Positions 17,875 through 47,919 are shown, counted from the first letter of the stretch. The stretch: DNA of 56,735 nucleotides from an uncultured Anaerolineales bacterium (GCA_964653285.1 CAZZEX010000021.1:1-56735); one strand, 5' to 3'. Program-made: numbers and translations. Notes: a model not told the origin generated them from the letters alone.

Positions 17875-17903
17875 GGCTGTTCCAGAAAAATAATCATCCC
17901 AAT

Positions 17904-17999: not shown

Positions 18000-18100
18000 A
18001 GGCTATGACCTGGGATACTTTAAGTCCTGGAACACCCTAAATCCACTGTTGTCCTGTATAAGAGAGAATCCATCAGCCATAATCGCCGCCATCAGGGTAT

Positions 18101-31948: not shown

Positions 31949-33286
31949 ATGAACTCCATTGAGATTCGGCGGCGCTTCGTGGACTACTACGAAGGACATG
32001 GGTTTCACCTGCTCTCTCGTGCTCCCATGCTCCATCCCTCAATCCCCATGTCTTTTGTGATGAGCGCCGGTCTGGTTCAGGTGGAAACTTCGCTGGCCCG
32101 GGCAGAGGAAAGGCATGGCGATCAGTTCGTCCTCGTGCAAGAGTGTTTCCGCCACTTCGATCTCGACAAGGTGGGTACTGATGGCACTCACCTTAGTCTG
32201 TTTGAGATGCCTGGAGCATTCGTTTTCGGGCCAAACGGAAAAGCAGAAACTGTTCGGCGAATGTGGATACTGGCAACCTCGGTCTTAGGGATAGATAAGA
32301 GCCGCATCTGGGTCTCGTACTTCAAGGGTGGAAAGATGTTGGGCGATTACCTGCCGGGTGACGAGGTGACACGCCAGGCATGGGTCAAGGTGGGGATGCC
32401 TGAGAACCGGATTGTCGGGTTAGTGGACGACAACTATTGGGTGCAAGGCGGTGGTATTGATGGGATGGAGACGCCCCGAAAAGCCGGCCCAAACACAGAG
32501 TTGTTCTACGACAGAGGGGTCGAGAGAGCATGTGGGCCAGATTGTAGACCGGGCTGCAAGTGTGGGCGTTTTGTAGAGTTCTCCAACTCCCTGTTCATCT
32601 GCCGCGAACAGGATTCACAGAGCAGGTCTCTCCGCCCGATGGCGGAACCCTTCTCCGAAACTGTCATTGGCACTGAGCGAGTGGCGATGATATTGCAGGG
32701 CACTCAATCGGTGTTTGACACAGATACCTACCGACCGATCATCACGGCTGTGCATGGTTTCGTTCGCGCACCTGACCTGCCAGAACCGTTGCTCACCGCA
32801 AGCGAACGAGTGATAGCCGATTATCTCAAGGCACTCTACTTCCTGGTGGCAGATGGCGCTCCTCCGCCAGGTAAAAACGGGCGAGAGCGCATCATCAAGA
32901 TATTGATTCGAGGTGTGATAGCGCGGCAGGTCATCCTGGGCATTCAATCCAAGGAGTTTCTGCCCACACTGATAGATTGCATTTCCCAGACGGTTCACAG
33001 CAGTTTGCGAGCGACGCCGGAGGAAGAGAGGCGACTGGTGTCCTACTTCTCAACCGAGTCACAGCGTTTCTCAAAGACCATTGAGCGTGGACGTCGCCAA
33101 CTACTGCGGTTCCTGAAAGAGAACGATGGACGCACGCTTTCTGGCCCGCAGATTGTCTGTCTGGAAAAGAAGTGGGGCCTGCCACGCCTTCTAACTGCCG
33201 CAATGTTGCGGGAGAAGGGATTGGTGTTTACGGAAGCGGAGTACGGAGAGGCGTTGGAGGTCTGGAAGCAGCAGCCCCATAACTGA
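31949..33286 (+). CDS. Stand-alone alanyl-tRNA-synthetase catalytic-core paralog (class II core plus tRNA-recognition helical domain, no editing or C-Ala domains). 445 aa.
   Basis: Collinear with the AlaRS N-terminus: IRRRFVDYYEGHGFH, motif-2-like CFRHFDLDKVGTDGTHLSLFEMPGAFVFG, ELFYDRG, FVEFSNSLF, RVIADYLKALYFLVADGAPPPGKNGRERII. Ends about 440 aa where the AlaRS editing domain would start. Confidence 0.8.
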   Translation: MNSIEIRRRFVDYYEGHGFHLLSRAPMLHPSIPMSFVMSAGLVQVETSLARAEERHGDQFVLVQECFRHFDLDKVGTDGTHLSLFEMPGAFVFGPNGKAETVRRMWILATSVLGIDKSRIWVSYFKGGKMLGDYLPGDEVTRQAWVKVGMPENRIVGLVDDNYWVQGGGIDGMETPRKAGPNTELFYDRGVERACGPDCRPGCKCGRFVEFSNSLFICREQDSQSRSLRPMAEPFSETVIGTERVAMILQGTQSVFDTDTYRPIITAVHGFVRAPDLPEPLLTASERVIADYLKALYFLVADGAPPPGKNGRERIIKILIRGVIARQVILGIQSKEFLPTLIDCISQTVHSSLRATPEEERRLVSYFSTESQRFSKTIERGRRQLLRFLKENDGRTLSGPQIVCLEKKWGLPRLLTAAMLREKGLVFTEAEYGEALEVWKQQPHN

Positions 33287-33437
33287 ATCTGCATACCTGG
33301 GAATCGTGTGCCGCAACTACATTGGTGGCCCGTTTCACTAATCCGCAACAGTGCTGTAACTCAAACGAAATCCAAAGAATGTTGACTCTGAGTTATACTA
33401 ATGCTGAGGACATAAGGATGGCGAGGAGAGTGACCCA

Positions 33438-36400
33438 ATGACCATCTCTCAAGAACTTGACAGAAAACAGTTCTTTCAACCGGTGGTGGAAACCATCAGT
33501 CTGACCCTGAGAATGCCGGCCTGCATCTGGCTTGCTGATGAGACTGGAGAAGCCCTCTGGATTGCCGCAGCTACGGAGGAGTTATCAGATGATTACATCC
33601 GCAAGGCGGTCTTGCGCCTGGATGAACCCAGCGTTGCGTCCGAAGTGGTTGCAGAACGCAAAACGGTCGTTGTGACAGACATTGCCTCCGATGACCGCTG
33701 GAAGTACAAGCCCGAAGCCGCTGACATGGGGTTGAAATCGGCTATGGTGGTACCATTGCAAGTCAAAAACAAGATCGTGGGCGTGCTTGATGTCTATGCC
33801 GACGAAGTAAGAGATTTCAGCGATTCCGAGAAGGCGCTGATTGAGGGCTTCGCCACCCAGATAGCCATCACGCAGCGTCGGATTCGGGATTTGGCGGTTT
33901 TGAACGAAGTGAGCCTGCTAATCAATTCCGAGTTACGCCCCTCCGATCTTTTCAAACGCATTGTGCAAGCCGCAGAAAGGGTGCTGGATTGTCAGCACGT
34001 CAGCATATTCCTGGTGGATAAGAGCGGTGACCTGGTGTTGGAGACCGCCTCGTCAGCAGGCATCGCACGACAGCGGTTCGCCCAAGGGGTCGGGTTGGCC
34101 GGGTGGGTAGCTAAAACCAAGCGCTCAGAACTCGTCCCGGATGCAGTCAAGCACCCCCAGTTTGTCCCCGGTCTGTCGTCAGAACTCATCAAGCGCTCGA
34201 TGTTGCTGTCGCCTATGCTCTTCAAGGACAAGGCTATTGGCGTGATCTCGGCTGATATGGACGGCCTGGGCGGCTTCAATGAGCATGATCAGATGTTACT
34301 GGAGGCATTGGCAAGTCAAGCCGCCGTGGCTGTACGCAATGCGAGATTGTTTGAGCAGCGGGAATTGCTTCGAGAGATCGCTCGGGACGTCACCAAGGTG
34401 CGAGGAACAGAAGAACTTCTGGAGGAGATATTAAGACGCTCCTTGACTTTGCTTGATTGTGAGGTTGGTTCGATTGCCCTGTTGAATGAGACTACCGGTG
34501 AACTGGAGTTTCGCTATGCGATTGGCAAGTCCGTCGGGATCTGCCTTCCGGTTGATAAGGGGCTCATGACTGCGGCGGCCCGAGAGCGTAGGCCGGTGCG
34601 AATCGGGGACGTTACGAAGGATAAGAGGTATGTTTGTCACGTAGACTCAACGCGCTCTGAACTAGACATGCCCTTGCTGGCACGTGGGAAGGCGATCGGA
34701 GTGCTAAACTTCGAGAGTCCATACTACAATGCCTTTGATGAGGACGATGAGATGTTGGCTCATGCATTGGCCGACCATGCAGCAATCGCCCTCTACAATG
34801 CACAGCAAGGTGAGCGGCTAAGTACGCTAGTCAAAGTAGGGCAAGATTTGACCTCCGAAATCCATTTGGAACGGGATGAGATACTAGAGTTGATCTACGA
34901 ACAAGCCCGCAGACTAACGGGTACTCAAGACATGTACATCGCCCTGTACGACGATGAGTCGAACAGAATCCGCTTTGGGTTGGCAATGGAAGATGGAAAA
35001 CGAGTAGAAGTAGGTGTAGGCGGATGGTCTCCCCGTGAAGCCGATCTGGAAAAAAGAGGGAAGACGGAAGAGATCATCCTGATCAAAGAGCCAATCCTGC
35101 ACAGGACGCTGGACGAATCGACAAAGTGGTATGAGGAGCCTGGACACAAGGAATTCCTCGGTCGAGTCGCTACATCTTGGATGGGTGTTCCCATGGTTCT
35201 AGGGGACAGGGTTCTAGGCGTGATCGCCATCTACGATTGGGAGCGCGAGTACGCCTACGACGAGCAGGATCTGCAGGTCATATCCTCTATGGCCAGCCAA
35301 GCCGCGATTGCTTTGGATAATGCAGATCTATACCATCGGCGTCTCAAGGGTCTGGATGCGCTGAACCAGGTGGGACAGGTCCTTAGTTCCAGTGTTTGGC
35401 TGGAGCAAACGGAGATACTAGAGTTGATCTACGAACAAGCCCGCAGACTAACGGGTACTCAAGACATGTACATCGCCCTGTACGACGATGAGTCGAACAG
35501 AATCCGCTTTGGGTTGGCAATGGAAGATGGAAAACGAGTAGAAGTAGGTGTAGGCGGATGGTCTCCCCGTGAAGCCGATCTGGAAAAAAGAGGGAAGACG
35601 GAAGAGATCATCCTGATCAAAGAGCCAATCCTGCACAGGACGCTGGACGAATCGACAAAGTGGTATGAGGAGCCTGGACACAAGGAATTCCTCGGTCGAG
35701 TCGCTACATCTTGGATGGGTGTTCCCATGGTTCTAGGGGACAGGGTTCTAGGCGTGATCGCCATCTACGATTGGGAGCGCGAGTACGCCTACGACGAGCA
35801 GGATCTGCAGGTCATATCCTCTATGGCCAATCAGGCGGCAATCGCGCTGAACAATGCAGCTTTGTACCAGCAGGTGGAGACAGTGCGGAGCGTTGCCAAC
35901 GCCATCACTACAGAGTTGGACCCGCAAGCCTGTATGGAACGTATTCTTGACGAGACGATGAAGCTATTGGGTGTCCATTACGCTACCATTCAATTGGTAG
36001 ACAAGGCGACCGATGAACTGGTCATACGTGCACAGAGAGGCGTAGAAGGGAGGATACTGGCACCTGATCTATACAGAATCAAGATAGGCGAAGGAATCAC
36101 AGGTGTAGCAGCCCAGGGTAAGCGGACGATTAGAGTGGGCAACGTGGACGATGTCGGGTACTATCTGGATTACATTGAGGGCACGCGCTCAGAAATGGCA
36201 ACGCCGTTGATCCAGCGTGGGGAAGTGATCGGTGTGCTTAACGTAGAGGATCCAAGAGAAAATGTTTTTGATCAAGACGACGAAGATTTATTCGAACTGC
36301 TGGCGGAGGAAGTAGTGGTCGCGATCCAGAATGCTGCGCTCTTTGAAGAAAAGGATCAAGCTCTAAGGTCGCTGCGGGAGGAGCAAAGGAAAAGCAGGGC

Positions 36401-37085
36401 TGCCGAACGTTTAGCAGCAGTAAACACCGTAGCGGCAGGGTTTGTGCATAGAATGAACAATGTTGCTGGCACGATACCGGTGCGTGTTGGGCAAATCAAA
36501 GAACTGTTGGATCCAGGCGATCCGAAATATTCCAAGATTGCCCATTTTCTGGGTGCTATAAACAGGGATGTCGATGGCATCCTCAGAACCGCGAAGACTA
36601 TTAGGTCATCCACCGAAGCCACGGAACCTCTCGAGCTGGTAAATGTTGCTCTTCTGGTTTCCAGTGCAATCGAAAGAATCGCATTACCCACGGGCATAAC
36701 AGTCTGCAACCAGTGCGAGCAGGATCTGCCCGACGTGCTTGTTTTCAGCGGTAAGCTCATAGATGCTCTAGAGAACCTTATTCGAAATGGCATTGAAGCC
36801 ATTAAAGGGTCGGGTTCAGTTACTATAGCATGCAGAACATCGGTGAAAGAGGATCAGGAGTGGGTAGCCATTGAGATAGAGGATACAGGCCGTGGCATTT
36901 CTTCCGAGGATTTGCCCAGGATCTTTGACCTGTTCTTTTCCACCAAGGGTGGAATGGGCTTTGGCCTTTGGGGAGCCAGAACGCTTGTCGAGAGCCTGGG
37001 GGGCAGGATTGACGTATCAAGTGAGTTCGGTAAAGGTACGACTTTCACGATCCTTCTACCGGTGGAGAAGGAGGCGCAGAGATGA
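33438..37085 (+). CDS. Cytoplasmic multi-GAF sensor histidine kinase (about 6 GAF domains plus HisKA plus HATPase_c).
   Basis: Repeated GAF signatures. H-box ...AAGFVHRMNNVAGTIP.... ATP-lid/G-boxes IEDTGRGIS, GGMGFGLW. No TM segments. Confidence 0.9.
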   Translation: MTISQELDRKQFFQPVVETISLTLRMPACIWLADETGEALWIAAATEELSDDYIRKAVLRLDEPSVASEVVAERKTVVVTDIASDDRWKYKPEAADMGLKSAMVVPLQVKNKIVGVLDVYADEVRDFSDSEKALIEGFATQIAITQRRIRDLAVLNEVSLLINSELRPSDLFKRIVQAAERVLDCQHVSIFLVDKSGDLVLETASSAGIARQRFAQGVGLAGWVAKTKRSELVPDAVKHPQFVPGLSSELIKRSMLLSPMLFKDKAIGVISADMDGLGGFNEHDQMLLEALASQAAVAVRNARLFEQRELLREIARDVTKVRGTEELLEEILRRSLTLLDCEVGSIALLNETTGELEFRYAIGKSVGICLPVDKGLMTAAARERRPVRIGDVTKDKRYVCHVDSTRSELDMPLLARGKAIGVLNFESPYYNAFDEDDEMLAHALADHAAIALYNAQQGERLSTLVKVGQDLTSEIHLERDEILELIYEQARRLTGTQDMYIALYDDESNRIRFGLAMEDGKRVEVGVGGWSPREADLEKRGKTEEIILIKEPILHRTLDESTKWYEEPGHKEFLGRVATSWMGVPMVLGDRVLGVIAIYDWEREYAYDEQDLQVISSMASQAAIALDNADLYHRRLKGLDALNQVGQVLSSSVWLEQTEILELIYEQARRLTGTQDMYIALYDDESNRIRFGLAMEDGKRVEVGVGGWSPREADLEKRGKTEEIILIKEPILHRTLDESTKWYEEPGHKEFLGRVATSWMGVPMVLGDRVLGVIAIYDWEREYAYDEQDLQVISSMANQAAIALNNAALYQQVETVRSVANAITTELDPQACMERILDETMKLLGVHYATIQLVDKATDELVIRAQRGVEGRILAPDLYRIKIGEGITGVAAQGKRTIRVGNVDDVGYYLDYIEGTRSEMATPLIQRGEVIGVLNVEDPRENVFDQDDEDLFELLAEEVVVAIQNAALFEEKDQALRSLREEQRKSRAAERLAAVNTVAAGFVHRMNNVAGTIPVRVGQIKELLDPGDPKYSKIAHFLGAINRDVDGILRTAKTIRSSTEATEPLELVNVALLVSSAIERIALPTGITVCNQCEQDLPDVLVFSGKLIDALENLIRNGIEAIKGSGSVTIACRTSVKEDQEWVAIEIEDTGRGISSEDLPRIFDLFFSTKGGMGFGLWGARTLVESLGGRIDVSSEFGKGTTFTILLPVEKEAQR
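34877..35828. repeat. Perfect 418-bp direct repeat with 534-bp period (34877-35294 equals 35411-35828), an in-frame duplication of one GAF domain inside the kinase gene.
   Basis: Identical antisense ORFs are reported at 34914/35448 and 34925/35459. Aligning the two copies shows divergence only after ..ATGGCCA (SSMASQ vs SSMANQ). Confidence 0.9.
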
Positions 37086-37471
37086 GCGACAGACGCATTC
37101 CCCGTATCCTGGTCGTGGACAGCGAGCCCAAGTGGAGTCAAGCGGTAAAAGCCACTTTGGAAGAACATGGGAAGTACTACGTTGTAAATGTCGGTGATAG
37201 TGAGACTGCTTTGAAATCTTCCTATGGTGACGGCTTTGACCTCATCCTCATCAATGCTACCCTTGCCCTTGGAGAGAACATGCCCAAGTTCGAGGAGATA
37301 GTGCGTCTATACGCAGATAAGGTACTGGTCATTTCCGACGTGCGTTCGATATCAACGGCCATAAAAGTGTTTAAGATGGGAGCGGACTATGCAGAGAAGC
37401 CGTTCGAGCCAAGACGAGTCATAGATCTGGTAGCGAGTCGCTTGCAGCAGGCATACGGAACTGCGAGCTAG
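37082..37471 (+). CDS. Single-domain receiver (REC) protein, likely a pseudo-receiver (phospho-acceptor Asp replaced by Asn).
   Basis: ILVVDSEPKW...FDLILIN(ATLALGE)NMP...VLVISD...EKPF. T/S and K are conserved; D57-equivalent reads N and D13-equivalent reads S. Start overlaps the HK stop (ATGA). Confidence 0.7.
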   Translation: MSDRRIPRILVVDSEPKWSQAVKATLEEHGKYYVVNVGDSETALKSSYGDGFDLILINATLALGENMPKFEEIVRLYADKVLVISDVRSISTAIKVFKMGADYAEKPFEPRRVIDLVASRLQQAYGTAS

Positions 37472-37494
37472 CGTCACACGAGGAGGAGAGTAAA

Positions 37495-38352
37495 ATGGAG
37501 ACCTTACCCCAAGACCGTCCACGCGTGCTCATTGTGGATGATCAACCGAACTGGCGGGAAGCGTTGTGCGAATTACTGGATCCCACCAAGTACGAGATTG
37601 AGACAGCAGCCAGCTACGATGAGGCCAAGCGTAAACTACGGCAACGCGCCTTCCACGTACTGGTGGCTGACCAGAGGCTGGTGGACGCTCAGGTGAACAA
37701 CATACAAGGCATCCTTTTGTTGGACGAAGTGAACAAGCTTCGGGATGGAACCCAGGCCATCATCGTGACAGGTTATCCGTCAATCGAGGCGGCCAAGGAT
37801 GCACTGAAGGGGCGTGCTGCCTACGACTACATATTTAAGTCCCCGGAAGAGAGTGAGCCGCCATTCAATATCCAGTACCGGGAACGGGTTAAAGAAGCCA
37901 CCGAGGAGGCGGAGCTGGAGCGACAGAAGGCAATTACGTTGGGCTTTTCAGTGTCGTCACTGATCGCGGGCTTAACTTATGAGCGAATTGCTGAAACCTT
38001 GTTCCCCGCAGGCACGGTGTCCCAAGATTTGCTGGAGGGTGTTAAGAGAGTGCTACATAGGCTACTTTACCCGCTCCAGCCCTTGGCGCGTCAGATGGGT
38101 AGAGTTTGGCTGTCGGAGTCAGATCAAACATGTGAGGTTCTTTGTTGGAGTAGAAATCGCGGCAAAGCAGCTTTGATCAGGATCGGTAGAGAAAGACTCT
38201 CGTTAGACGACCGTAAACCCGAATGGCTTAAGGAGAGTTGGCGTTCGATTAAGGACGAGCAGTTCGCGTCCGTTCCACTTGTAGGAATCTCGTACACGAT
38301 TGATGATATGATGTTTGAGGACTTCGTAGCTTTGGTTAAGGAAGAAGATTAG
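37495..38352 (+). CDS. Receiver domain protein with a roughly 150-aa uncharacterised C-terminal domain (no HTH).
   Basis: VLIVDDQPNWREAL...HVLVADQRL...IIVTGYPS...IFKSP. The C-terminus is unassigned. Confidence 0.7.
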   Translation: METLPQDRPRVLIVDDQPNWREALCELLDPTKYEIETAASYDEAKRKLRQRAFHVLVADQRLVDAQVNNIQGILLLDEVNKLRDGTQAIIVTGYPSIEAAKDALKGRAAYDYIFKSPEESEPPFNIQYRERVKEATEEAELERQKAITLGFSVSSLIAGLTYERIAETLFPAGTVSQDLLEGVKRVLHRLLYPLQPLARQMGRVWLSESDQTCEVLCWSRNRGKAALIRIGRERLSLDDRKPEWLKESWRSIKDEQFASVPLVGISYTIDDMMFEDFVALVKEED

Positions 38353-38353
38353 T

Positions 38354-39358
38354 ATGGGACCGAAGCCGAAGAAGCGCATACTGGTGATAGAGGATCAACC
38401 TAATTGGCAGGACCTAATTGGTGAATTGATCCAGGAAGTCGCTGATGAGATTGGATGCGCAATCGAAGTGGTGATCGCGACTCGCTTTGTGGAGGCATTG
38501 AAGAGCATCGCGGCAACGTTCTACGACTGTGTTACTGTTGACAACGCTCTCCCGGATGGCAAGATGGCAAGGGCGCTAATCGATCGTATCGGGAATCTTG
38601 GCTACAGAGTTCCAGTTGTCGTTGTAAGCGGACAGGTGAAACCAAGCGACGTTGGAGATTTCTTCCAGGACTACAGAATTGACGGGTTCTTTTGGAAGGG
38701 AGAAGATTTCGAGCCGAAGAAATTCAAAAACACACTTGCAAGGCTACTCGCGCCTGTCAAGAAAGGTGAGGAACTGCAAGGACTGCAGCGCAAGGAAAGA
38801 GGAGACAGACTTATGGACTGGAACACAATCATTAGCCTGGCTGTATCCGCTGTGTCACCGTACGCCGTCGCATTTGCGACGAGCGCCGCAACTGTCGCTG
38901 GAAAGGAGCTGGTCGAGACAGCTTCCGAAAGTATTAAAAGGCTGTGGCAATGGATTAATCAGACTATCAGCAAAAGCAATGATAAGTCCGCTAGGAAAGT
39001 ATGGGAGGGCTTCAAGAAGGATCCCCGTAGCAACAAGGATGCTTTGGTTGACGCCATCTGGCGGCTGAGTCCAGATGATGATACGGTTCTGCGCGGATAT
39101 GTGCGGGGGCTCATTCAGGAAGTGCAACTCCGAAAAGGCGCACTGTTGTTTTCTTTGCTTGACAATCCCGACTATTACACCTTCAACGATCTGAAGCGTA
39201 TCTGCAGTCGAGTTAGCCCGCAATGGGAAGGCGAGACAGGGCCCCCGACGCGTGAGGGCTTGGCACGCTGGGTCGTCACCTATGTTCCAACAAGGAACAG
39301 ACAGCAAGATTTGATTGCAGCCATGCTGGAAGTGAATCCAACCGTAATGCTGCAATAG
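38354..39358 (+). CDS. Receiver domain protein with a helical middle region and a C-terminal module resembling an effector-associated (EAD/death-like) domain.
   Basis: ILVIEDQPNWQDL...CVTVDNALPDG...VVVVSGQ...FFWKGEDF. C-terminal ...YTFNDLKRICSRV...GETGPPTREGLARWVVTYVPTRNRQQDLIAAMLEVNPT fits the F..eL..lC...G......r.kA.eLV.y.e..r.....L...L pattern of EAD-type adaptor domains. Confidence 0.65.
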   Translation: MGPKPKKRILVIEDQPNWQDLIGELIQEVADEIGCAIEVVIATRFVEALKSIAATFYDCVTVDNALPDGKMARALIDRIGNLGYRVPVVVVSGQVKPSDVGDFFQDYRIDGFFWKGEDFEPKKFKNTLARLLAPVKKGEELQGLQRKERGDRLMDWNTIISLAVSAVSPYAVAFATSAATVAGKELVETASESIKRLWQWINQTISKSNDKSARKVWEGFKKDPRSNKDALVDAIWRLSPDDDTVLRGYVRGLIQEVQLRKGALLFSLLDNPDYYTFNDLKRICSRVSPQWEGETGPPTREGLARWVVTYVPTRNRQQDLIAAMLEVNPTVMLQ

Positions 39359-39450
39359 CCTGGACGCATAAGGCGCGGATAGGCTGGCTATCACCGCTAC
39401 CTCCGCGCCTTCTTTCGCGTTGACTGTCCCCACAGAATCGGATCGCTGCT

Positions 39451-40113
39451 ATGACCCAAGACATCATCGCCCTCCTAACCGCCTTCGCCTACGTCTTCGC
39501 CATGATCGGCGTCGCCGAGGCACTCCGCAAGTGGCGCGGCTACTCGGTCGAGTTCACGCGCAAGTTCATCCACATCGCGGTCGGCATGTGGGCCTACGGG
39601 ACGGTGCTGCTGTTCGAGCACCGCACCTTCGCCATCATCCCGCCGCTGGCGTTCGTCGCCATCAACGGTTTCTCCTACTGGCGCGGGACGTTCAAGGCCA
39701 TGGAGACCGGGGAAAAGGGACAGTTGGGCACCGTCTACTTCCCCATCTCGTTCGTCGTGCTCATCTGGCTGCTGTGGGACCGCCCGCATTTGCTGGTGGC
39801 GAGCCTGATGCCGATGACCTGGGGGGATGCACTGGCCGCCGTGGTGGGACGGCGCATCGGCCAACGGCGCTACACTGTCGCTGGAAGCACCCGCTCGCTG
39901 GAGGGGTCGGTGGTGCTGTTCCTCATCAGTTGGGCGGCGACGCTCGTGCCACTTATGCTGCTGGCTCCGGAGCCCATTAACCCGGCCGCCGCAGTGGGAA
40001 CCGCGGCCGTGACGGCACTGGGCGCAGTGGTCGTCGAGGCGGTCTCGCCGTGGGGCATTGATAATCTGACCGTGCCAGCAGTCTCAGCGCTGGTGCTGGT
40101 GTGGATGTTGTAG
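39451..40113 (+). CDS. Polyprenol/phytol-kinase-like membrane protein (DGK1/SEC59/VTE5, CTP-dependent kinase family).
   Basis: Polytopic protein with FTRKFIHIAVGMWAY and C-terminal ...RSLEGS...TALGAVVVEAVSPWGIDNLTVP, typical of the phosphatidate-cytidylyltransferase-like kinase family. Confidence 0.65.
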   Translation: MTQDIIALLTAFAYVFAMIGVAEALRKWRGYSVEFTRKFIHIAVGMWAYGTVLLFEHRTFAIIPPLAFVAINGFSYWRGTFKAMETGEKGQLGTVYFPISFVVLIWLLWDRPHLLVASLMPMTWGDALAAVVGRRIGQRRYTVAGSTRSLEGSVVLFLISWAATLVPLMLLAPEPINPAAAVGTAAVTALGAVVVEAVSPWGIDNLTVPAVSALVLVWML

Positions 40114-40117
40114 GAGA

Positions 40118-40200
40118 GTAAATGGGTGAATGAGGAAAGGGTAAATGAGGAGACCCATCTACTCATTCCTCATCTACTCATTCCTCATTTACTCATCTAC
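40118..40200. terminator. Hairpin and direct-repeat region between convergent genes (GAATGAGGAA ... TTCCTCAT xN; TACTCATTCCTCAT repeated).
   Basis: Inverted repeats seen directly, located between the stop of the kinase-like gene (40113) and the stop of the minus-strand gene (40197). Confidence 0.4.
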
Positions 40201-40991
40201 TCACTCACCTCCTCCGTGATCAGGAACTGGGCGATGCCCTGCAGCCGGGCCTCAATGAAGACGTGAATCTCGCAAGTACCCGGTTCCCAGCCCCCCGGCG
40301 GCTTACAATAGTACGAGTTACGTCCGTGCTCGCCCCAATCCCGCCCCTCAACCAACCCCCAAAGCCACGTGTCCGAGCAGAAATCTATGAACTCCCCATC
40401 TCTATACCAGGCAAAGGTCGTCACGACGCCGTTCTCCATCCCTTCGTAGGTGAAGAATAGGTACACCCGGTGATCGCCCGGTGGGAACTCGGTGCCCGGA
40501 TCCACAGGCTCACCGCTATCGTCCTGGTCGGCGGCCAGGGTGATGACGGCGATACGTGCATCCTCTCCGGCCGGCACGGCTGAGGGCAGCGGCGTCAGCG
40601 CCATATCGGGCAGGGGGGCGGCCGGCGTGGGCGTGGGGATCAAGGGCGGGGTCGCTGTGGGCCGGCGGGTAGGGGTGACAGTTGGCGTGCGGGTGGGGCG
40701 CGGGGTAGGCGTGAGCGTGATCGTTGGGGTCGCAGTCGGGGCAGGGATGGGGGCAGGCACGATGACCGCCAGGTACAGAGCCGCGATCAGCAGAGCGATG
40801 GCCGACGCCTGTAGCACCAGCGATGTCAGGAGCCAGCGCTTGGCCCGCCTGAGGGCATCCCGGCGCATGGCATAGTACGGGGCGTGGCGCGCCTTGACGA
40901 GTTGAGAGATGACCAGCCCTACCGGGATGGCGGAAGCGATCAACAACGCGTAAGCAGCCCAGCGTATCAGGCTCAGAGTCAGGGGGGTCAA
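40197..40991 (-). CDS. Membrane-anchored protein with a Pro/Thr-rich linker and a Cys-containing C-terminal domain. Function unknown.
   Basis: Two N-terminal TM helices, PTATPTITLTPTPRPTRTPTVTPTRRPTATPP linker, C-terminal domain with four Cys. Confidence 0.55.
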   Translation of the reverse strand: MTPLTLSLIRWAAYALLIASAIPVGLVISQLVKARHAPYYAMRRDALRRAKRWLLTSLVLQASAIALLIAALYLAVIVPAPIPAPTATPTITLTPTPRPTRTPTVTPTRRPTATPPLIPTPTPAAPLPDMALTPLPSAVPAGEDARIAVITLAADQDDSGEPVDPGTEFPPGDHRVYLFFTYEGMENGVVTTFAWYRDGEFIDFCSDTWLWGLVEGRDWGEHGRNSYYCKPPGGWEPGTCEIHVFIEARLQGIAQFLITEEVSE

Positions 40992-41101: not shown

Positions 41102-43039
41102 CTACAGGTGCTCCTTGACGGCCAGGGCCACAGTACGGGGGATGCCAGGCACGGCGGCCAGTTGCTCGACGCTGGCTGCGCGGATACCATTGAGGGAGCC
41201 GAAGGCTTTAAGGAGCGCCTTACGCCGCGCCGGCCCCACGCCGGGGATGCTGTCTAGTTGCGACGCGACCCCCGCCCTGCGCCGGCGCGCGCGGTGGTGC
41301 GTGATGGCGAAGCGGTGCGCCTCGTCCCGCACGCGCTGCACGAGAAAGAGCCCCTGGGAGCGACGGGGGAGCAGAACAGGCTTGACCCGTCCTGGCAGGA
41401 AAATCTCCTCGCGCTGCTTGGCCAGGGCCGCCACCGGCACCCTGGCGAGCAGATCGAACTCCTGCAGCGCCTCGACCGCCACACCCAACTGCCCTCTGCC
41501 ACCATCCACGACGAGCAGGTCGGGCAATTTGGCCCAGCCTTTGATACCCCCCTCAATCCCCCCTCCAGGGGGGAGGCTTCCCTTGATACCCCCCTCAATC
41601 CCCCCTCCAGGGGGGGGAGCACCCCCCTCAATCCCTCCTACGAGGGGGGAGGCTGACGCGGCGGTCTGCCAGCGGCGGAGGCGGCGCTGCAAAACTTCGC
41701 GCATGCTGGCGTAGTCGTCCTGGCCCTGCACACTGCGCACGACGAAGCGTCGGTATTCGGACTTGCGGGGCACACCCTGGACAAAGACGACCATGCTGCC
41801 GACTACTTCCGTCCCCTGCGTCGTAGAGATGTCGTAGCACTCAATGCGTATCGGAGGCCTGGGGAGTTCCAGCGCCTTCTGGAGTTCGGCCAGTGCCTGC
41901 TCGTGCCTGTGGGCGTCGGCCTGCCACTGGGCACGCAGGGCGGCCAGCGTCTCGGCGGCGTTCTTGGCCGCCAGTGCCACCAACTCCCGTTTCTGACCCC
42001 GGCGGGGCACGCGCAGCGTCACCTTGGCCCCTCGCTTCCCCTTCAGCCACTGCTCGATGACCAGTGCCTCCTCGATCTGCTCTGGCAGCAGCACCTCGGG
42101 CGGGACGTAGGCGGCCTCCTCGTAGAACTGCTTGAGGAAGGCAGCCATCACCTCCCGCTCGTCCTCGTCCTGCGCTCCCTCCAGCACAAAGTACTCCCGT
42201 CCCAGCAGTTTGCCCCCTCGGATGAAGAAGACCTGCACGCAGGTGTCGTCTTCTTCGCGAGCGAAGGCGATCACGTCCTGGTCAGTGCCGGCCGATGAGA
42301 CGATCTTCTGCCGCTCGACGACGCGTTGCACCGCCTGTAGTTGATCGCGCAAGGATGCTGCCTGCTCGAAGTCCCATCCATCGGCAGCGGCCTGCATCCG
42401 CGCCTCCAGGTCTGCGATCACTTTCTCACTGCGACCTTCGAGGAAGTGGACCAGCCCCCGGATCATCGCGCGGTACGCGTCTTGTGTCACTGCGCCGATG
42501 CAGGGTCCCAGGCAGAGTTTGATGTCGTAATACAGGCAGGGCCGCTCGTCGTGACCGGTGATCTCCCGATTGCAGGTCAAGTATGGGAATGACTTGCGCA
42601 GCAGGTCGAGCGTCTGGTGCATGGCCGAGGCGGAGGTGAAGGGGCCGAAGTAGCGGCTGCCGTCCTGTTCCATGCGGCGGGTGATGAGTACCCTGGGGAA
42701 CGGGTCGGCCCAGGTGATCTTGATGTAGGGGTAACGCTTGTCGTCCTTGAGGCGCACGTTGTAGCGGGGACGGTGCTGCTTGATCAGGTTCGCCTCCAGG
42801 ATCAGCGCCTCCAGTTCCGAATCGGTGACGATGAACTCCAGATCGGTGATCTCGGACACCAGCGCGTGCACCTTGGGGTTCTCCTGGGCCGAGGCGTGGA
42901 AGTAAGAGCGCACGCGGGCGCGCAGGTCAACTGCCTTGCCCACATAGATGACGGCCCCGCTCACGTCGCGCATCAGGTAGACGCCCGGCTTGCGAGGAAG
43001 TGTCTCAATCTGGGTCCAAATGTGCTCTGGGAAGTTCAT
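41102..43039 (-). CDS. uvrC: Excinuclease ABC subunit C.
   Basis: GIY-YIG N-terminus (KPGVYLMRDVSGAVIYVGKAVDLRARV), UvrBC-interaction region, RNase-H-like/endoV domain, HhH2 C-terminus. Contains an in-frame repeat insert at 41521-41650. Confidence 0.95.
   Translation of the reverse strand: MNFPEHIWTQIETLPRKPGVYLMRDVSGAVIYVGKAVDLRARVRSYFHASAQENPKVHALVSEITDLEFIVTDSELEALILEANLIKQHRPRYNVRLKDDKRYPYIKITWADPFPRVLITRRMEQDGSRYFGPFTSASAMHQTLDLLRKSFPYLTCNREITGHDERPCLYYDIKLCLGPCIGAVTQDAYRAMIRGLVHFLEGRSEKVIADLEARMQAAADGWDFEQAASLRDQLQAVQRVVERQKIVSSAGTDQDVIAFAREEDDTCVQVFFIRGGKLLGREYFVLEGAQDEDEREVMAAFLKQFYEEAAYVPPEVLLPEQIEEALVIEQWLKGKRGAKVTLRVPRRGQKRELVALAAKNAAETLAALRAQWQADAHRHEQALAELQKALELPRPPIRIECYDISTTQGTEVVGSMVVFVQGVPRKSEYRRFVVRSVQGQDDYASMREVLQRRLRRWQTAASASPLVGGIEGGAPPPGGGIEGGIKGSLPPGGGIEGGIKGWAKLPDLLVVDGGRGQLGVAVEALQEFDLLARVPVAALAKQREEIFLPGRVKPVLLPRRSQGLFLVQRVRDEAHRFAITHHRARRRRAGVASQLDSIPGVGPARRKALLKAFGSLNGIRAASVEQLAAVPGIPRTVALAVKEHL
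41521..41650. repeat. Three tandem copies of a G/C-rich palindromic unit (..ATACCCCCCTCAATCCCCCCTCCAGGGGGG..) inserted in-frame in uvrC, encoding (P)PGGGIEGGIKG x3.
   Basis: Direct inspection. Insert lies just before the conserved UvrC LVVDGGRGQL motif. Confidence 0.75.
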
Positions 43040-43166
43040 CGTTTCATTTCTGGCAGAATCGTCAAGACGACCACTTAAGCCTGAGTCTGCGCGAATGGCG
43101 TCGTGCTCCGGGGGGTGGGTCGGTGTGGTCGGAGCGTGCTACGTCGTTCCTGTGACCTGTGGCCTG

Positions 43167-44171
43167 CTACAATTGGGCGGCGAAGGCTTCCAACGCGTCT
43201 GGCGTGATGGGAGGTGTTGCGCCGCGCTGTGTGGCGACGTAGGCTCCCAGCAGGTTGGCGAAGTCGGCCACCTCGGCCAGCGGCCGGCCAGCCAGGTACT
43301 TCACGACCAGCGCCGCCGTGAAGGCATCCCCGGAGCCGACCGTGTCCACGACCGGGCAGGCATAGCCAGGTGAGACGACCCGCTCCTGGCGCGTGCGCAG
43401 GATGCACCCGCGCGCGCCCAGCGTCACGCAGACCAACTCCAGGCCGTAGGCTTCCAGCAGGTGGAGCAGGAACTTGTCTTCGTCCAGATCATCTTGCCCC
43501 AGCATTCCCTGCACTATGCGCAGTTCGTCGTCGTTTAACTTCAGCAAGTGGCACCGCGACAGCGAACCGCGCACGACCTCGACGGAGTAGTGGGGTGGGC
43601 GCAGGTTGAGGTCGCAGACAATGAGCGCCGGCGCGGTGCCTTGAGCGCCTCGACTGGGCTCGGCGAAGTCTTGTCGGAGGGAGGCGACCTCCAGCAGCGC
43701 GGCGATGGACCGCCGTGCTACCGGGTGCCGCTGCGCCAGCGTGCCGAAGCAGACCACATCGGCGGCGCGGACACGTGCCACGGCTACCGGGTCAGCAGCG
43801 AGATAATCGTAAGCCACCTCTGTGCAGATGTCGAACTCCGGCTGCCCGTCGGCGTGGAGCGTCACGTGCACCTGCCCGGTGGGGTGGTCGGTATCGCGCT
43901 GGACCGGGCTGGCATCCACACCTAGTTCTCGTGCTCTGGTCATGATCTCGTCGCCCAGTTCGTCCCGACCCACGCGGCTGACGATCGCGCTGCGAGCACC
44001 CAGGTGGTGGCAGTGGACGGCGAAGTTGAAGGGCGCACCGCCCAGGTGCATCCCTCCCGCCCCCCCTCCACCTTCCCCCCCAAAGTTGGGGGGGACAGAG
44101 GGGGGGCGGGAAGGGAGGATGATGTCCCAGAGAACTTCGCCGATGGCTATGACGTCGAGTGCTCTGTCCAC
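43167..44171 (-). CDS. PfkB-family carbohydrate kinase (fructokinase/ribokinase-like) carrying a 22-aa palindrome-encoded insert near the N-terminus.
   Basis: VIAIGEVLWDII[LPSRPPSVPPNFGGEGGGGAGGMH]LGGAPFNFAV..., C-terminal DTVGSGDAFTAALV (PfkB signature). The insert corresponds to palindrome 44041-44110. Confidence 0.85.
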   Translation of the reverse strand: MDRALDVIAIGEVLWDIILPSRPPSVPPNFGGEGGGGAGGMHLGGAPFNFAVHCHHLGARSAIVSRVGRDELGDEIMTRARELGVDASPVQRDTDHPTGQVHVTLHADGQPEFDICTEVAYDYLAADPVAVARVRAADVVCFGTLAQRHPVARRSIAALLEVASLRQDFAEPSRGAQGTAPALIVCDLNLRPPHYSVEVVRGSLSRCHLLKLNDDELRIVQGMLGQDDLDEDKFLLHLLEAYGLELVCVTLGARGCILRTRQERVVSPGYACPVVDTVGSGDAFTAALVVKYLAGRPLAEVADFANLLGAYVATQRGATPPITPDALEAFAAQL

Positions 44172-44199
44172 ATTCCCTCCTGATCAACCCGGCAGCGGG

Positions 44200-44895
44200 C
44201 TAATGCACCGGGTGGTGTGTAGGTCCGAACTCGTTCTCCAGGATGGCCCAGATGTCTGCCCACAGGTCCCGGTCGGCGAAACTGGTGTGAATCTCGTCCA
44301 GCGTCTGGTTGAAGGTGTGCTGGTCGGTCTCTCCCAGGATGGTGAGCACGGCGTTGGCGACCCCGAAGCGAATTTCGCGGTTGGCGCGGTGATGGCGGTG
44401 CACCTGGCGCAGGCGCGGGATGTCTTCCAACTGTCCCAGCATGATCATACCGGCCACACCGTTGGCGACCGGTTCCTCGTCATCGGAGTCCAGTCCTTCG
44501 CGCAGGTAGGGCAGGGCGCGGTCGTCTCCCAGGCCAGCCAGGCTCAGCGCGGCGGTGGAGACTCGCTCCGGGTCGTCCCGGTTGTCCTGGAGAAACTGCC
44601 ACACTGGTTCACGCGCTTGCTCATCGCCGGTGCCTCCCAGGAGGGAGACGACCTCGTCGGTCGCGATGGGATCCAGCGCCGGATCGGCCAGCGCCTCCAG
44701 CAGCTCGGGTGCAACGAGTTCACCCATGCGAGCCAGCCGGTCGAAGGCCAGGTCATGATCGGCCTGTGTGAGGCCGGCCAATTGGCGGATCAAGTCAGGC
44801 GCTCGTGCGCCGTACTTGCGGTAGGCGCGTTCTGCCTGGGGGTGCATATTGCGGCGACGCTCGGCCGCCGCCTCCATCATTTTGCGGTTGGGCAC
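44200..44895 (-). CDS. HEAT-repeat (PBS-lyase-type) protein.
   Basis: Repeated ...ALxxLGxxxAxxxLxxxLxDxDxxVR...-like helical repeats. Confidence 0.6.
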   Translation of the reverse strand: MPNRKMMEAAAERRRNMHPQAERAYRKYGARAPDLIRQLAGLTQADHDLAFDRLARMGELVAPELLEALADPALDPIATDEVVSLLGGTGDEQAREPVWQFLQDNRDDPERVSTAALSLAGLGDDRALPYLREGLDSDDEEPVANGVAGMIMLGQLEDIPRLRQVHRHHRANREIRFGVANAVLTILGETDQHTFNQTLDEIHTSFADRDLWADIWAILENEFGPTHHPVH

Positions 44896-44970
44896 CTCTC
44901 ACCTCTTTTCACCTCAGCACCGGCTCTTCAGGCCGGTGCGGTCGACTCTCCCCCCGCTGTGTGGGGGCTT

Positions 44971-45387
44971 CTACTCTCCCATCATCTGTACCACCAGCCG
45001 CCGTGACCTGGGGCGGGTGTCGAAATCGAGAAACACGATCTGCTGCCACGTGCCCAGCGTGAGGCGGCTCTCGACGAAGGGCACCGTCAGCGAGGGACCG
45101 ATGAGAGCGGAGCGGATGTGGGAGTGGCCGTTGTCGTCCCCCCAGCGCAGGTGGTGGCGGTAATCCCGGTCTGGCGGCGCGACCTCGTCGAGCACCCGCT
45201 GGAGGTCGGCCAGCACGCCGCTCTCATACTCGATCGTGGTCAGGCCCCCGGTCGAACCGGGGCAGAAAACGGTGACAATGCCCGCCTGCAGGTCTGATTC
45301 CTTCACCACCCCCGCGACCTGGGGGGTGATGTCCTGAATGTCGCAGTGGCCACGGGTATGCAGTTGTAGTTCGTGAGTAATAACCAT
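44971..45387 (-). CDS. yjbQ: YjbQ/UPF0047 family protein (secondary thiamine-phosphate synthase-like).
   Basis: ...DITPQV...GIVTVFCPGSTGGLTTIEYE...HSHIRSALIGPSLTVPF... is characteristic of UPF0047. Confidence 0.85.
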   Translation of the reverse strand: MVITHELQLHTRGHCDIQDITPQVAGVVKESDLQAGIVTVFCPGSTGGLTTIEYESGVLADLQRVLDEVAPPDRDYRHHLRWGDDNGHSHIRSALIGPSLTVPFVESRLTLGTWQQIVFLDFDTRPRSRRLVVQMMGE

Positions 45388-45690
45388 CCGCTTGTCTCCT
45401 CCGATTCGATATCTGAACTATGCCCCGTTGTTGGGAAGATCCCCGTCCCCTTGATGCCCTAACCGAAGTCTGGTACACTGTGGCTAGAAGCCGGGTGGTG
45501 TAGCCTCCTCACGGTAACCAGTCCGTGACCGAATCTACACAGTACCGCGAAAGCGGTTTCTTGATTGTTCCTTGGTGGCCTGTATACTCATCGTCACTGA
45601 TACCAGCCAGCCGGTTTCCAATATCATAGCACAATTCTCTCAGATTCCAAAATTGGCGCGCTGTGTCCAGTCATGTTACAATGCGCCACC

Positions 45691-47919
45691 ATGGACATCC
45701 TTGAAGGACTCAACTCCCAACAACAGAAAGCCGTCACCGCCTCTGACGGCCCGGTGCTGGTGCTGGCTGGGCCGGGCAGCGGCAAGACCCGCGTGCTCAC
45801 CCATCGCGTCGCCTGGCTGGTGCTGGAACTGGACGTCGCCCCCTGGCGCATCATGGCGGTCACCTTTACCAACAAGGCTGCCCGCGAGATGCGGGAACGG
45901 CTGGAGTACCTTCTTGGTCCCTCCCGCGCCCGCAGCCTCACGCTGGGCACCTTCCACGCCACCTGTGCCCGCATCCTACGCCGCGAGGCCGAGGCAGCGG
46001 GCATCCCCCGTGATTACGCCATCTTCGATGCCGACGACCAACTCCGCCTGGTCAAGCAGGTGATCCGTGACCTGGACCTGGACGACAAGCGTTACCGCCC
46101 CCAGGCGGTGCATGGTGCCATCTCCCGCGCCAAGAACGAGCTGATTCCGCCGGAGGCGTACTCCACCGGCTCTTACTACGGCGAGGTCGTCAAACGGGTC
46201 TACGAGCGCTACCAGGGGCTGCTGGCGGCCAACAGCGGGCTCGACTTCGACGACCTGCTGATGGTGACGGCGCGCATGTTCGGCCAGAACCCGGACGTGC
46301 TGGCGAAGTACCAGGAGCGCTACCGGCACATCCTGGTGGATGAGTTCCAGGACACCAACCAGGCGCAGTACGTGTTGTTGCGGCAACTTTCGGGGCGGCG
46401 TCACAACTTGTTCTGTGTGGCTGACGAGGATCAATCAATCTATGCGTGGCGTGGCGCGGACTATCGCAACATCCGCCGCTTGCGGGACGATCACCCTGAC
46501 CTGGTGACCATTCTCCTGGAGCAGAACTACCGCTCCACCCAGACCATCCTGGACGCCGCGCACGCCGTCATCCGCCGCAACCCCGACCGCACCGACAAAT
46601 CGCTCTTCACGCGACGGGGGCGCGGACCTGAGATCATCGTCCACGAAGCCTACGACCAGGACGACGAGGCCCGGTTCGTCGTGGACACCATCGCCCAACT
46701 GGCTGCCTCTCCCCCCCCTGGAGGGGGAGGCAGGGGGGGGGTACGCCCCGGCGACTGCGCTGTGATGTACCGCACCAACGCCCAATCTCGTGCCTTCGAG
46801 GAATCCTTCATCCGCGCCGGACTGCCTTACAGGCTGGTCGGCGCCACCCGCTTCTATGCCCGCCGTGAGATCAAGAACCTGATCGCTTTCCTGCGCCTGA
46901 TCCACAACTCCACCGACGGCGTGAGTATGGCCCGCGTGATCAACGTCCCTCCCCGGGGCATCGGCCGGAAGACGGTGGCGGTGCTGGAGGACGCGGCGCG
47001 GGAGCGGGGCGTCTCGGTCTACAAAGTGCTCAAGGAAATCCCTCAGGAAAGCCCCAAGCCCCAAGCCCCAAGCCCAAAACTGGGGACGCGGGCACGCCGG
47101 GCGCTGGCACTGTGGCTGGGACTATTGGAGGGCTGGATCGCGGCGCGTGCTGCATTGACGGTGGCGCAGTTGATAGACCGCGTCTTGGAGGACACCCGCT
47201 ATGCTGACTACCTACGCGACGGCACCGAGGAGGGGGAGGAACGCTGGGCCAACGTGCTGGAGTTACGCAACGTGGCCGCCGAGTACGAGGACCTGATGCT
47301 GACCGACTTCCTGGCCGATGTCGCGCTTGTTTCCGACGTGGACAACTTGAGCGACGAGGCGGACGCGCCGACGCTGCTCACGCTTCACAGTGCCAAGGGG
47401 CTGGAGTTTCCCGTCGTCTTCGTCACCGGGCTGGAGGAGGGGATGCTCCCTCATAGCCGCTCCTTCGACGAACCGGAGCAGATGGCCGAGGAGCGACGGC
47501 TGATGTACGTCGGCCTGACGCGGGCGAAGGACCGGCTCTTCTTGACCTACGCCTTTATCCGTACCCGCTACGGCGACAGCGAGCCCTCGGTGCCCAGCCG
47601 TTTCCTGGACGACATCCCCCCGGAGTTGGTCAAGGGCTCGTGGGGAGGGGGGCAGGAAGCAGGAGGCGGGAGGCAAGAGGCAGGAGGCGGGAGGCAAGGG
47701 GCAAGGGGGACGAGAGGCGAGGGGCGCAATTCGCCATTCGCCATTCGCAATTTGCAATTCCGTGCCGGGCAGCGGGTGCAGCATGCGACCTTCGGCGAGG
47801 GGCTGGTGATCGAGAGCCGCGCCGATGGGGACGATGAGATGGTGACCGTGGTCTTTGAGGAGGTCGGGTTGAAACGACTGATGGCGGGCCTGGCGCACCT
47901 GGAACGGCTGGAGGATTAG
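45691..47919 (+). CDS. uvrD: ATP-dependent DNA helicase UvrD/PcrA.
   Basis: LNSQQQKAVTASDGPVLVLAGPGSGKTRVLTHRVAWLV (motif I), DEFQDTNQAQY (II), YRSTQTIL, TLHSAKGLEFPVVFV. The table ORF starts 18 nt upstream at 45673. Contains several in-frame repeat inserts. Confidence 0.9.
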   Translation: MDILEGLNSQQQKAVTASDGPVLVLAGPGSGKTRVLTHRVAWLVLELDVAPWRIMAVTFTNKAAREMRERLEYLLGPSRARSLTLGTFHATCARILRREAEAAGIPRDYAIFDADDQLRLVKQVIRDLDLDDKRYRPQAVHGAISRAKNELIPPEAYSTGSYYGEVVKRVYERYQGLLAANSGLDFDDLLMVTARMFGQNPDVLAKYQERYRHILVDEFQDTNQAQYVLLRQLSGRRHNLFCVADEDQSIYAWRGADYRNIRRLRDDHPDLVTILLEQNYRSTQTILDAAHAVIRRNPDRTDKSLFTRRGRGPEIIVHEAYDQDDEARFVVDTIAQLAASPPPGGGGRGGVRPGDCAVMYRTNAQSRAFEESFIRAGLPYRLVGATRFYARREIKNLIAFLRLIHNSTDGVSMARVINVPPRGIGRKTVAVLEDAARERGVSVYKVLKEIPQESPKPQAPSPKLGTRARRALALWLGLLEGWIAARAALTVAQLIDRVLEDTRYADYLRDGTEEGEERWANVLELRNVAAEYEDLMLTDFLADVALVSDVDNLSDEADAPTLLTLHSAKGLEFPVVFVTGLEEGMLPHSRSFDEPEQMAEERRLMYVGLTRAKDRLFLTYAFIRTRYGDSEPSVPSRFLDDIPPELVKGSWGGGQEAGGGRQEAGGGRQGARGTRGEGRNSPFAIRNLQFRAGQRVQHATFGEGLVIESRADGDDEMVTVVFEEVGLKRLMAGLAHLERLED

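Follow-up and report, generated by a model that had tools for sequence, protein, structure and literature searches.

Palindromic repeats that lie in frame within genes have so far been documented mainly in Rickettsia and, sparsely, as repetitive extragenic palindromes (REPs) in Proteobacteria and Opitutus. The Rickettsia palindromic elements (RPE) RPE-1 to RPE-10 (Ogata et al. 2000/2002) are described as AT-rich sequences of ~100-150 bp found only in Rickettsia, with each family encoding one conserved peptide in one frame (PMC10969869, PMC3733652). A 2024 review still regards Rickettsia as an exceptional case (PMC10969869). Di Nocera et al. (2013, PMC3733652) reported that intragenic REPs are strikingly frequent in UvrABCD, UvrD/Rep helicases, TruB and tRNA synthetases. 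The known short tandem heptamers include the cyanobacterial STRR and the quadruplex-forming GGGNATC repeats (PMC4692102). Here we describe in-frame inserts built of C and G runs in three genes, uvrC, uvrD/pcrA and a pfkB-family sugar kinase gene, on a stretch of DNA of 56,735 nt from an uncultured Anaerolineales bacterium (GCA_964653285.1 CAZZEX010000021.1:1-56735; the whole of this stretch is referred to as the window). The inserts are probably members of one family of G/C palindromes, very short and repeated, whose behaviour is that of intragenic REP or RPE.

The window is also contained within the metagenome contig JGI 3300031337 Ga0307430_1000148 (69 kb), and the nearest named relatives of its proteins are in genome bins of the Chloroflexota, Anaerolineae and Thermoflexia. 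The GC content is 60-65% across most of its length. The region of interest consists of five genes, namely uvrC, the PfkB-family sugar kinase gene, a HEAT-repeat gene, yjbQ and uvrD/pcrA. The three host genes and their inserts are as follows.

41102-43039, minus strand: uvrC, open reading frame (ORF) of 645 amino acid residues with Pfam domains GIY-YIG, UVR, UvrC_RNaseH and HHH; hosts the tandem core units.
41546-41652, minus strand: three tandem core units in uvrC, from comparison with ortholog DNA and repeat finding.
41621-41652 (degenerate), 41588-41619 and 41546-41575, minus strand: the individual uvrC units.
43167-44171, minus strand: pfkB-family sugar kinase gene, ORF of 334 residues (PF00294); hosts the outer-type hairpin.
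44049-44117, minus strand: near-perfect hairpin in pfkB, 69 nt, -63.5 kcal/mol, z = -4.45.
45673-47919, plus strand: uvrD/pcrA helicase gene, ORF of 748 residues with UvrD-helicase, UvrD_C and Tudor domains.
46708-46740, plus strand: single core unit in uvrD, 33 nt, TCT-C8-TGGA-G5-AGGCA-G9.

The initial annotation of the window had reported inserts in these three genes and a hairpin within an O-antigen ligase gene; all four features exist, at positions that were exact or off by a few bases, and all four host genes are intact ORFs with complete sets of Pfam domains. The hairpin-repeat feature is real and non-random: the sequence CCCCCCTCCAGGGGGG, allowing up to two mismatches, has 5 matches in the window against 0.12 expected, a number reached by none of 100 shuffles. 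A search of the entire window against Rfam at the gathering score gave zero matches. Spurious long ORFs cross the repeats in other frames or on other strands (41254-41631, minus; 41258-41656, plus; 43792-44187, minus; 43822-45006, plus), with peptides such as ...PPSIPPPGG...

A core element, yT-C6-8-TGGA-G5-6-N5-G6-9-T, 27-33 nt in length, is common to uvrC and uvrD; its basic form is yT-C6-TGGA-G6-ANNGA-G6-T, of about 27-30 nt. The uvrC unit reads yT-C6-TGGA-G6-ATTGA-G6-T on the coding strand; Tandem Repeats Finder reports arrays with periods of 42 and 33 at 41548-41651, the units are separated by duplicated, host-derived ATCAAGGG spacers and the encoded peptide is SPLVGGIEGG-APPPGGGIEGGIKG-SLPPGGGIEGGIKG. 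The uvrD insert has the same C-run/TGGA/G-run/5-nt/G-run layout, encodes SPPPGGGGRGG and stands in place of CAG GAA AAC (QEN/QEG) of the orthologs, directly before helicase motif IV (AVMYRTNAQSR). Both stretches are predicted to fold strongly, with z = -0.5 for uvrC and -1.25 for uvrD, which is no better than dinucleotide-preserving shuffles; since shuffles that keep the CC and GG dinucleotides fold as well, these values are uninformative, and the evidence beyond chance is therefore the recurrence of the motif and not its folding energy. Hairpin stability, which had been proposed as a check, thus exceeded that of shuffles for pfkB (z = -4.45) and the O-antigen ligase gene (z = -5.9) but not for uvrC and uvrD. 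Folding with quadruplexes allowed left uvrC unchanged and gave odd output for pfkB and uvrD, which was not used.

The pfkB hairpin reads CTCCCTTCCCG-C7-TCTGT-C7-AACTTT-G7-AAGGTGGA-G7-CGGGAGGGATG on the coding strand, with extended outer arms; the general form of this outer hairpin is C7-N5-C7-AACTTT-G7-N8-G7. It encodes LPSRPPSVPPNFGGEGGGGAGGM in place of the GAEK/GAER of orthologs, and its 69 nt replace GGC GCA GAG AGG of an empty allele (locus L202, see below). In the Chloroflexi bin K_DeepCast_250m_m2_317, from Lake Kivu-type samples, the outer hairpin occurs alone with the same AACTTT loop and, at three further loci, the core is nested within the loop of the outer hairpin as AACTT-CCCCCCTGGAGGGGGGACTGAGGGGGG-T. 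The composites, listed here by locus and position, share one junction.

L100 6244, minus strand: composite core-in-outer hairpin.
L125 1246, plus strand: composite core-in-outer hairpin.
L168 6548, minus strand: composite core-in-outer hairpin.

This nesting indicates that the two forms are related modules of one repeat system. The proposal that one palindrome occupies all three genes therefore holds for uvrC and uvrD, which share the core, and has to be amended for pfkB, which carries a related outer-hairpin subfamily. In a relative of 77% identity the G arm of the pfkB hairpin has decayed and the C arm has no compensating change, which argues against selection on the hairpin structure. A resemblance of the outer pfkB stem to host codons GGCGCAGAGAGG, from which it might have been copied, was too weak to claim.

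Comparison with orthologs revealed the empty state of each site. Relatives of UvrC at 78-89% identity have a 617-residue baseline, ...RRWQMATSDEVLGSRDIKGWAKLPD, and the ortholog baseline at the insert site is ...SDEVLGSRDIKGW. At the DNA level the empty site of ortholog L007 is TCG GAT / GAA CTG CTG / GGC AGC CGG GAC ATC AAG GGC TGG, with GAA CTG CTG also present in orthologs L004 and L012, and a one-unit relative (L006, also L107) reads GAT / TTCCCCCCTGGAGGGGGGATAAAGGGGGGT / GGC AGC, such that 30 nt stand in place of 9 nt. Close relatives have at this site one to three PxGGG(I/T)(K/E)GG units, decayed units, a EAGRPEARLQPG hairpin, GDLRPT repeats or none of these; EAGRPEARLQPG (from an unrelated hairpin) and GDLRPT are other repeat families nested at the uvrC site. 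The PfkB relatives read WDII-GAEK-HLGGAPFNF, a few having the insert found in the window and others different inserts in the same hairpin turn, and the UvrD relatives read AQLAA-QEGV-RPGDCAVMYRTN (also AQLAA-QEGV-RPGD), with the insert only in the closest ones. Close orthologs thus have 3-4 ordinary codons at the three sites, and the inserts, being missing from them, are not ancestral linkers. The alignment of orthologs suggested in the initial annotation found conserved empty sites in all three genes and not the shared segments that ancestral linkers would leave.

The uvrD-yjbQ-pfkB synteny is retained in L199 (GCA_034189605.1), where pfkB is filled and uvrD empty; L202 (GCA_034430995.1) has the opposite pattern, with uvrD filled and pfkB empty. 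The inserts were therefore gained at different times. A crude neighbour-joining tree of 120 UvrC proteins, for which the insert was masked, shows at least 6-8 alternations between occupied and empty clades, with the junction unchanged; this suggests that one site gained the insert repeatedly or that the allele spread by recombination. Searches (tblastn) with PfkB and UvrD against 80 uvrC loci gave matches in the source contigs only. Some close UvrD relatives (P0255, P0271, P0280, P0333, P0354 and P0360) have a length of 1088-1110 residues and contain intein domains (PF14890, Hint); the window uvrD has no intein domain.

The initial annotation placed the inserts in surface loops, and comparison with structures agrees. 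In Thermotoga maritima UvrC (2nrt), nothing between residues 80 and 83 corresponds to residues 456-503 of the window UvrC; the loop belongs to the RNase-H-like endonuclease domain, just ahead of the PDLLxVDGGxGQ strand. The UvrD insert corresponds to an 8-residue gap relative to Mycobacterium tuberculosis UvrD1 (9dci), between a helix and the motif IV strand. The best solved relative of the window PfkB is the fructokinase 2qhp, whose alignment begins only downstream of the insert. In an AlphaFold2 model of PfkB (mean predicted local distance difference test score, pLDDT, 91.7) the insert is predicted as a coil between strands 14-18 and 40-44, with a block-mean pLDDT of 54-58 and values below 50 at residues 29-36.

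Searches of species-representative genomes revealed that the core is dispersed well beyond this locus. The scan used the exact pattern CCCCCCTGGAGGGGGN{4,8}GGGGGG on one genome per species; the sample is arbitrary and the counts are lower bounds. The core was found in more than 111 stretches, where chance would give at most tens. Within the Chloroflexota there are at least 14 loci in Anaerolineae N3_163, at least 9 in Anaerolineales SRP214966_co5_314 and at least 6 in K_DeepCast; the core is also present in Bacteroidota, Desulfobacterota, Myxococcota and the unclassified JZ-2.bins.100 (at least 13 loci). Bases that the pattern does not force are conserved, namely T ahead of the C run and TGT past the last G run. 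The exact 28-mer CCCCCCTGGAGGGGGGATTGAGGGGGGT, present twice in the window uvrC, recurs at 7 other loci, of which 6 belong to Anaerolineae/Anaerolineales bins and 1 to a Flavobacteriaceae bin; four of the 7 are in Pfam-confirmed genes for an amidohydrolase, a PMT_2 protein, a P-type ATPase and a TatD protein. Viral contigs gave 4 hits only, with no sign of phage carriage. [quoted passage not shown] In a Coatesbacteria bin (L181 3887-3912) the core lies immediately upstream of a putative tRNA gene, judged by eye (GGGCCTGTAGCTCAGTGGATAGAGCA...).

The position of the copies relative to genes differs between the Chloroflexota and the other phyla. Among the matches listed, long open frames, defined as those that stay open for 60 codons or more on each side of the copy, contain 29 of the 33 copies from Chloroflexota, compared with 78% of random positions in the same loci; in other phyla the figure is 19 of 68, compared with 63% of random positions, and the core there is mainly intergenic (Fisher p = 9e-9 for the difference between the two groups). 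Pfam domains are clear in 23 of the 29 motif-spanning ORFs tested, three cases being two alternative frames over one copy. The hosts are P-type ATPase, V/A-ATPase subunit A, PBP1A (three), PMT_2 (three), TMEM260-like and CotH/beta-helix proteins; GH94, GH5, GAF-SpoIIE, SNF2 helicase, Wzy_C, amidohydrolase, TatD (whose gene has five tandem 33-nt units) and TruB; and MCH, GFO/IDH/MocA, phosphorylase, DUF6513 and AspRS. The copies are read in each of the three forward frames and also in reverse orientation, giving for example SPLEGG.., PPGGG.. and PPWRG.. The sequence itself leaves 5 of 6 frames open in the ATTGA core, and all 6 in both the ACAGA core and the outer hairpin. The genome search for the core that had been suggested thus found it in frame in many unrelated, Pfam-validated genes of the Anaerolineae.

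The two groups also differ in length. Most Chloroflexota copies have a 5-nt spacer (ATTGA, ACTGA, ACAGA or ACCGA), for a length of 27 nt when the first C and the last G are taken as the ends; in other phyla a 3-nt spacer (TTA or CCA) prevails, for a length of 25 nt. The run-to-run length, an approximate measure as the true ends of the inserts are not defined, can be divided by three in 26 of the 44 copies from Chloroflexota (59%) and in 17 of the 82 from other phyla (21%) among the matches listed (Fisher p = 2.6e-5). Selection for an intact reading frame would produce such a bias, which supports the preservation of the frame noted at the outset.

On the best reading of these data, the element is a palindromic repeat of REP/RPE-like kind, selfish or neutral, that permissive loops allow to persist. 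Copies would arrive by a copying process, for which the candidates are hairpin-dependent single-strand transposition and short-patch templated repair or gene conversion that uses other copies as the source. At each of the three window sites 9-12 host bases are replaced, instead of a clean insertion; this replacement and the lack of a target duplication suggest the latter, and base replacement would fit cut-and-paste transposition no better than it fits short-patch templated repair or conversion. Persistence could then be due to the near absence of stop codons (5-6 of 6 frames open), to the 27-nt length of the Chloroflexota variant and to flexible Pro/Gly peptides that loops tolerate. Resident copies may amplify locally by slippage (three units in uvrC, five in the TatD gene) and may draw in further repeats. 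The inserts are probably without function for the host.

Several observations weigh against this explanation. All copies in the 56.7-kb window fall within one 5.3-kb stretch. No transposase, target-site duplication or terminal repeat was seen for the Chloroflexota copies, and a crude tblastn search with an IS200 TnpA sequence had no hit in 1.6 Mb of fetched loci, which is a weak test and not evidence of absence. The alternation of UvrC clades is unexplained by simple vertical inheritance of a single insertion. Finally, over 66 nt the pfkB element of the window hardly differs from that of a relative with 81% identity, whose flanks do show synonymous differences, and this near-identity despite diverged flanks hints at homogenisation or constraint.

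A possible but unlikely alternative to spread by copying is that the inserts were made in place, by slippage and template switching in hypervariable loops, with the similarity between sites due to convergence. This would account for the many different inserts that the same loop positions hold across lineages, for the replacement rather than clean interruption of host bases, for the host-derived ATCAAGGG among the uvrC tandem units, for a minimal CCCCCTGGTGGGGG form in L067 and for the alternation of occupied and empty clades in the UvrC tree. It does not predict, however, an exact 28-mer common to unrelated genes and genomes, the conservation across phyla of bases that the search pattern leaves free (a T that precedes the C run and a TGT that follows the second G run), or the same AACTTT loop and composite junction at three loci of the K_DeepCast genome.

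In JZ-2.bins.100 the core sits inside a repeat of ~190 nt, a length judged visually on the alignment, whose terminal inverted repeats measure ~44 bp, GTAACTGTAACAATTTAGTAGGTGTCACTTTTTCTGTCTGAACA... As the motif lies within a terminal-inverted-repeat unit, it travels in a conventional MITE in at least one lineage. The loci of this repeat are L085, L090, L105, L134, L139, L142, L155, L164 and L186; its interior consists of C6/G6 hairpin modules including the core, and a second variant of the terminal repeat is present. A broader reading, which we regard as doubtful, takes the ~27-nt C6-TGGA-G6-spacer-G6 as a cross-phylum mobility unit of which the Anaerolineae variant is an intragenic parasite that repeatedly hits the same loops. 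An enzyme would recognise the hairpin or an intramolecular C·G*G triplex, or short-patch templated repair would copy the unit; in Bacteroidota, Desulfobacterota and the unclassified lineage the module would lie between genes, as part of MITEs that have terminal inverted repeats, and the frame-neutral 27-nt variant of the Anaerolineae would appear as alternating uvrC clades with one junction. If true, such a unit would be a general source of new protein loop sequence.

It is improbable that the host makes use of the hairpins or runs, either as translational attenuators, as quadruplex or triplex elements, or as slippage tracts (C8 and G9 in uvrD) that switch off nucleotide-excision-repair genes and give rise to mutator subpopulations. 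Two of the three hosts are excision-repair genes, which echoes the unexplained enrichment of intragenic REPs in UvrABCD (PMC3733652). The runs in uvrD are 8-9 bases long, and a very stable hairpin is located near the 5' end of pfkB. The C6-loop-G6-spacer-G6 layout presumably matches that of an intramolecular purine-motif triplex, a further point for host use. By contrast, the element is present in at least 20 genes of unrelated function, one hairpin arm decays uncompensated and folding with quadruplexes allowed gives no interpretable gain for uvrC. Phase-variable homopolymer (contingency) loci are marked by polymorphism in tract length that switches the reading frame; uvrD has C8 and G9 tracts, and an exact-protein look-up cannot show variants; an identical UvrC protein was found on 8 contigs (three shown, from three samples), which counts only weakly against variation in tract length because an exact-sequence search returns identical proteins only.

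Inheritance of ancestral low-complexity Pro/Gly linkers with the genes would fit the composition of the peptides and their position in loops; it is highly improbable and was rejected, as the ortholog alignments contradict it: most orthologs at 75-85% identity and all solved homologs are without the inserts, and L199 has the pfkB but not the uvrD insert and L202 the reverse. Assembly or sequencing artefacts such as poly-G read artefacts, which the homopolymer-rich inserts and one hit resembling poly-G-type junk (L113) might bring to mind, were rejected as the least credible origin, given the recovery of the identical UvrC protein on 8 contigs (the three shown being from three samples), related inserts in independent ENA, NCBI and Logan assemblies and a reading frame kept in every case.

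Other repeats of the window belong to different families. The O-antigen ligase hairpin and two further in-frame repeats in uvrD, at 47049-47075 and 47647-47760, which the initial annotation had missed, are listed here.

15861-17390, plus strand: Wzy_C O-antigen ligase/polymerase-like gene, 509 residues, PF04932 at residues 274-429.
16573-16669, plus strand: hairpin in the O-antigen ligase gene, (GAGACAAG)n and complement (CTTGTCYC)n, -52.9 kcal/mol, z = -5.9.
47049-47075, plus strand: (AAGCCCC)x3.9 heptamer repeat in uvrD, encoding PKPQAPSPK, ~4 residues more than in relatives.
47647-47760, plus strand: heptamer arrays (GGCAGGA)n then (CGCAATT)n in uvrD, of a different family, forming the linker before the UvrD Tudor domain.

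The O-antigen ligase hairpin encodes residues ~238-270, just ahead of the Wzy_C domain. It had been described as an unrelated hairpin that inserts about 35 residues; it is indeed a real and separate octamer-repeat family, but it replaces a variable loop with no net insertion of that length, since homologs have equally long, unalignable variable loops at this position, some with other repeat-derived peptides. The L006/L107 ortholog has the same octamer array, expanded, and more copies are found in L188 and L194. The (AAGCCCC)x3.9 repeat of uvrD is a different repeat family and the same phenomenon. In UvrD relatives the Tudor linker consists of unrelated RRDTSRHITAWQP... or of heptamer-derived peptides such as RNSQFAIRNSQF.

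Further repeats were observed outside these genes. A hairpin at 40103-40215 has 49-nt arms of 7- and 15-nt repeats (-51 kcal/mol, z = -4.8) and is located between the convergent genes 39451-40113 (plus) and 40197-40991 (minus); the same structure is present in L014. An intergenic inverted repeat, TGTCATTCTGAGCGGAACGCAGTGAAGCGAAGAATCTC ... GAGATTCTTCGCTACGCTCAGAATGACA, at 17903-18000 had no second copy among the fetched loci. A cluster of short repeats occupies 283-722, where long ORFs are absent, with (CAATGAA)n at 283-314, TTTCGTGT-type repeats at 372-395 and 584-653 and an inverted partner, GAAACACGAAAG, at 704-722. The GC content of 32001-40000 is lower (0.52-0.55, against 0.60-0.65 elsewhere); this part contains a tRNA-synt_2c-domain gene, a gene for a 1215-residue multi-GAF protein and three genes for response regulators.

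A much smaller, G/C-run element is now added to the intragenic palindromes, in free-living, GC-rich Chloroflexota, where about nine in ten of the sampled copies are intragenic. Excision-repair genes, TruB and an aminoacyl-tRNA synthetase are once more among the hosts. The element provides a second, independent system in which to ask how proteins tolerate, and perhaps recruit, repeat-derived loops and why repair genes recur as hosts. The points of note are the intragenic bias in the Chloroflexota, the 27- and 25-nt variants, the core common to several phyla, the repeated occupancy of the uvrC site and the repair-gene hosts. In practice, marker genes of metagenome bins look more divergent than they are when they carry such inserts, and the repeats likely yield false Pro/Gly-rich hypothetical proteins in automatic annotation.

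Compared with RPE, the element is alike in being a dispersed palindrome, with many copies in frame in unrelated functional genes at fold-compatible sites and no obvious transposase. It is unlike them in its length of 27-69 nt, its C/G runs, its use of several frames and both orientations and its tandem arrays; in addition, the core occurs in other phyla, mainly intergenically. The RPE-type interpretation first given to the inserts is therefore apt for their behaviour (in frame, in surface loops and dispersed) and does not extend to membership of the RPE family, from which the length (27-69 nt vs ~100-150 bp) and the taxon set them apart by description.

The resemblance to REPs lies in size and clustering, as REPs are GC-rich palindromes of 20-40 nt that are often clustered and the core measures 27-30 nt with many copies, and in the hosts UvrC, UvrD, TruB and AspRS, which recur here. 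Unlike REPs, the core has no GTAG/CGTC tag, its C run being preceded by T and its last G run followed by T or TGT, and it has three runs (C-loop-G-spacer-G) where a REP is a simple imperfect palindrome. Its copies in the Chloroflexota are mainly intragenic (88%), whereas REPs are mainly extragenic, a feature that the core displays only outside the Chloroflexota. For the association of REPs with RAYT (Y1) transposases, the IS200 TnpA query gave no hit in the 1.6 Mb of loci, a weak test.

The core of JZ-2.bins.100, inside a repeat with terminal inverted repeats, resembles a MITE; the Chloroflexota copies, far below the MITE size of 70-300 bp, have neither terminal inverted repeats nor a target duplication. 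With the tandem heptamers the window has in common its AAGCCCC, GGCAGGA, CGCAATT and GAGACAAG arrays, some of them in frame, whereas the core element is a hairpin unit. The element is a new family of an already known phenomenon, not a new kind of biology.

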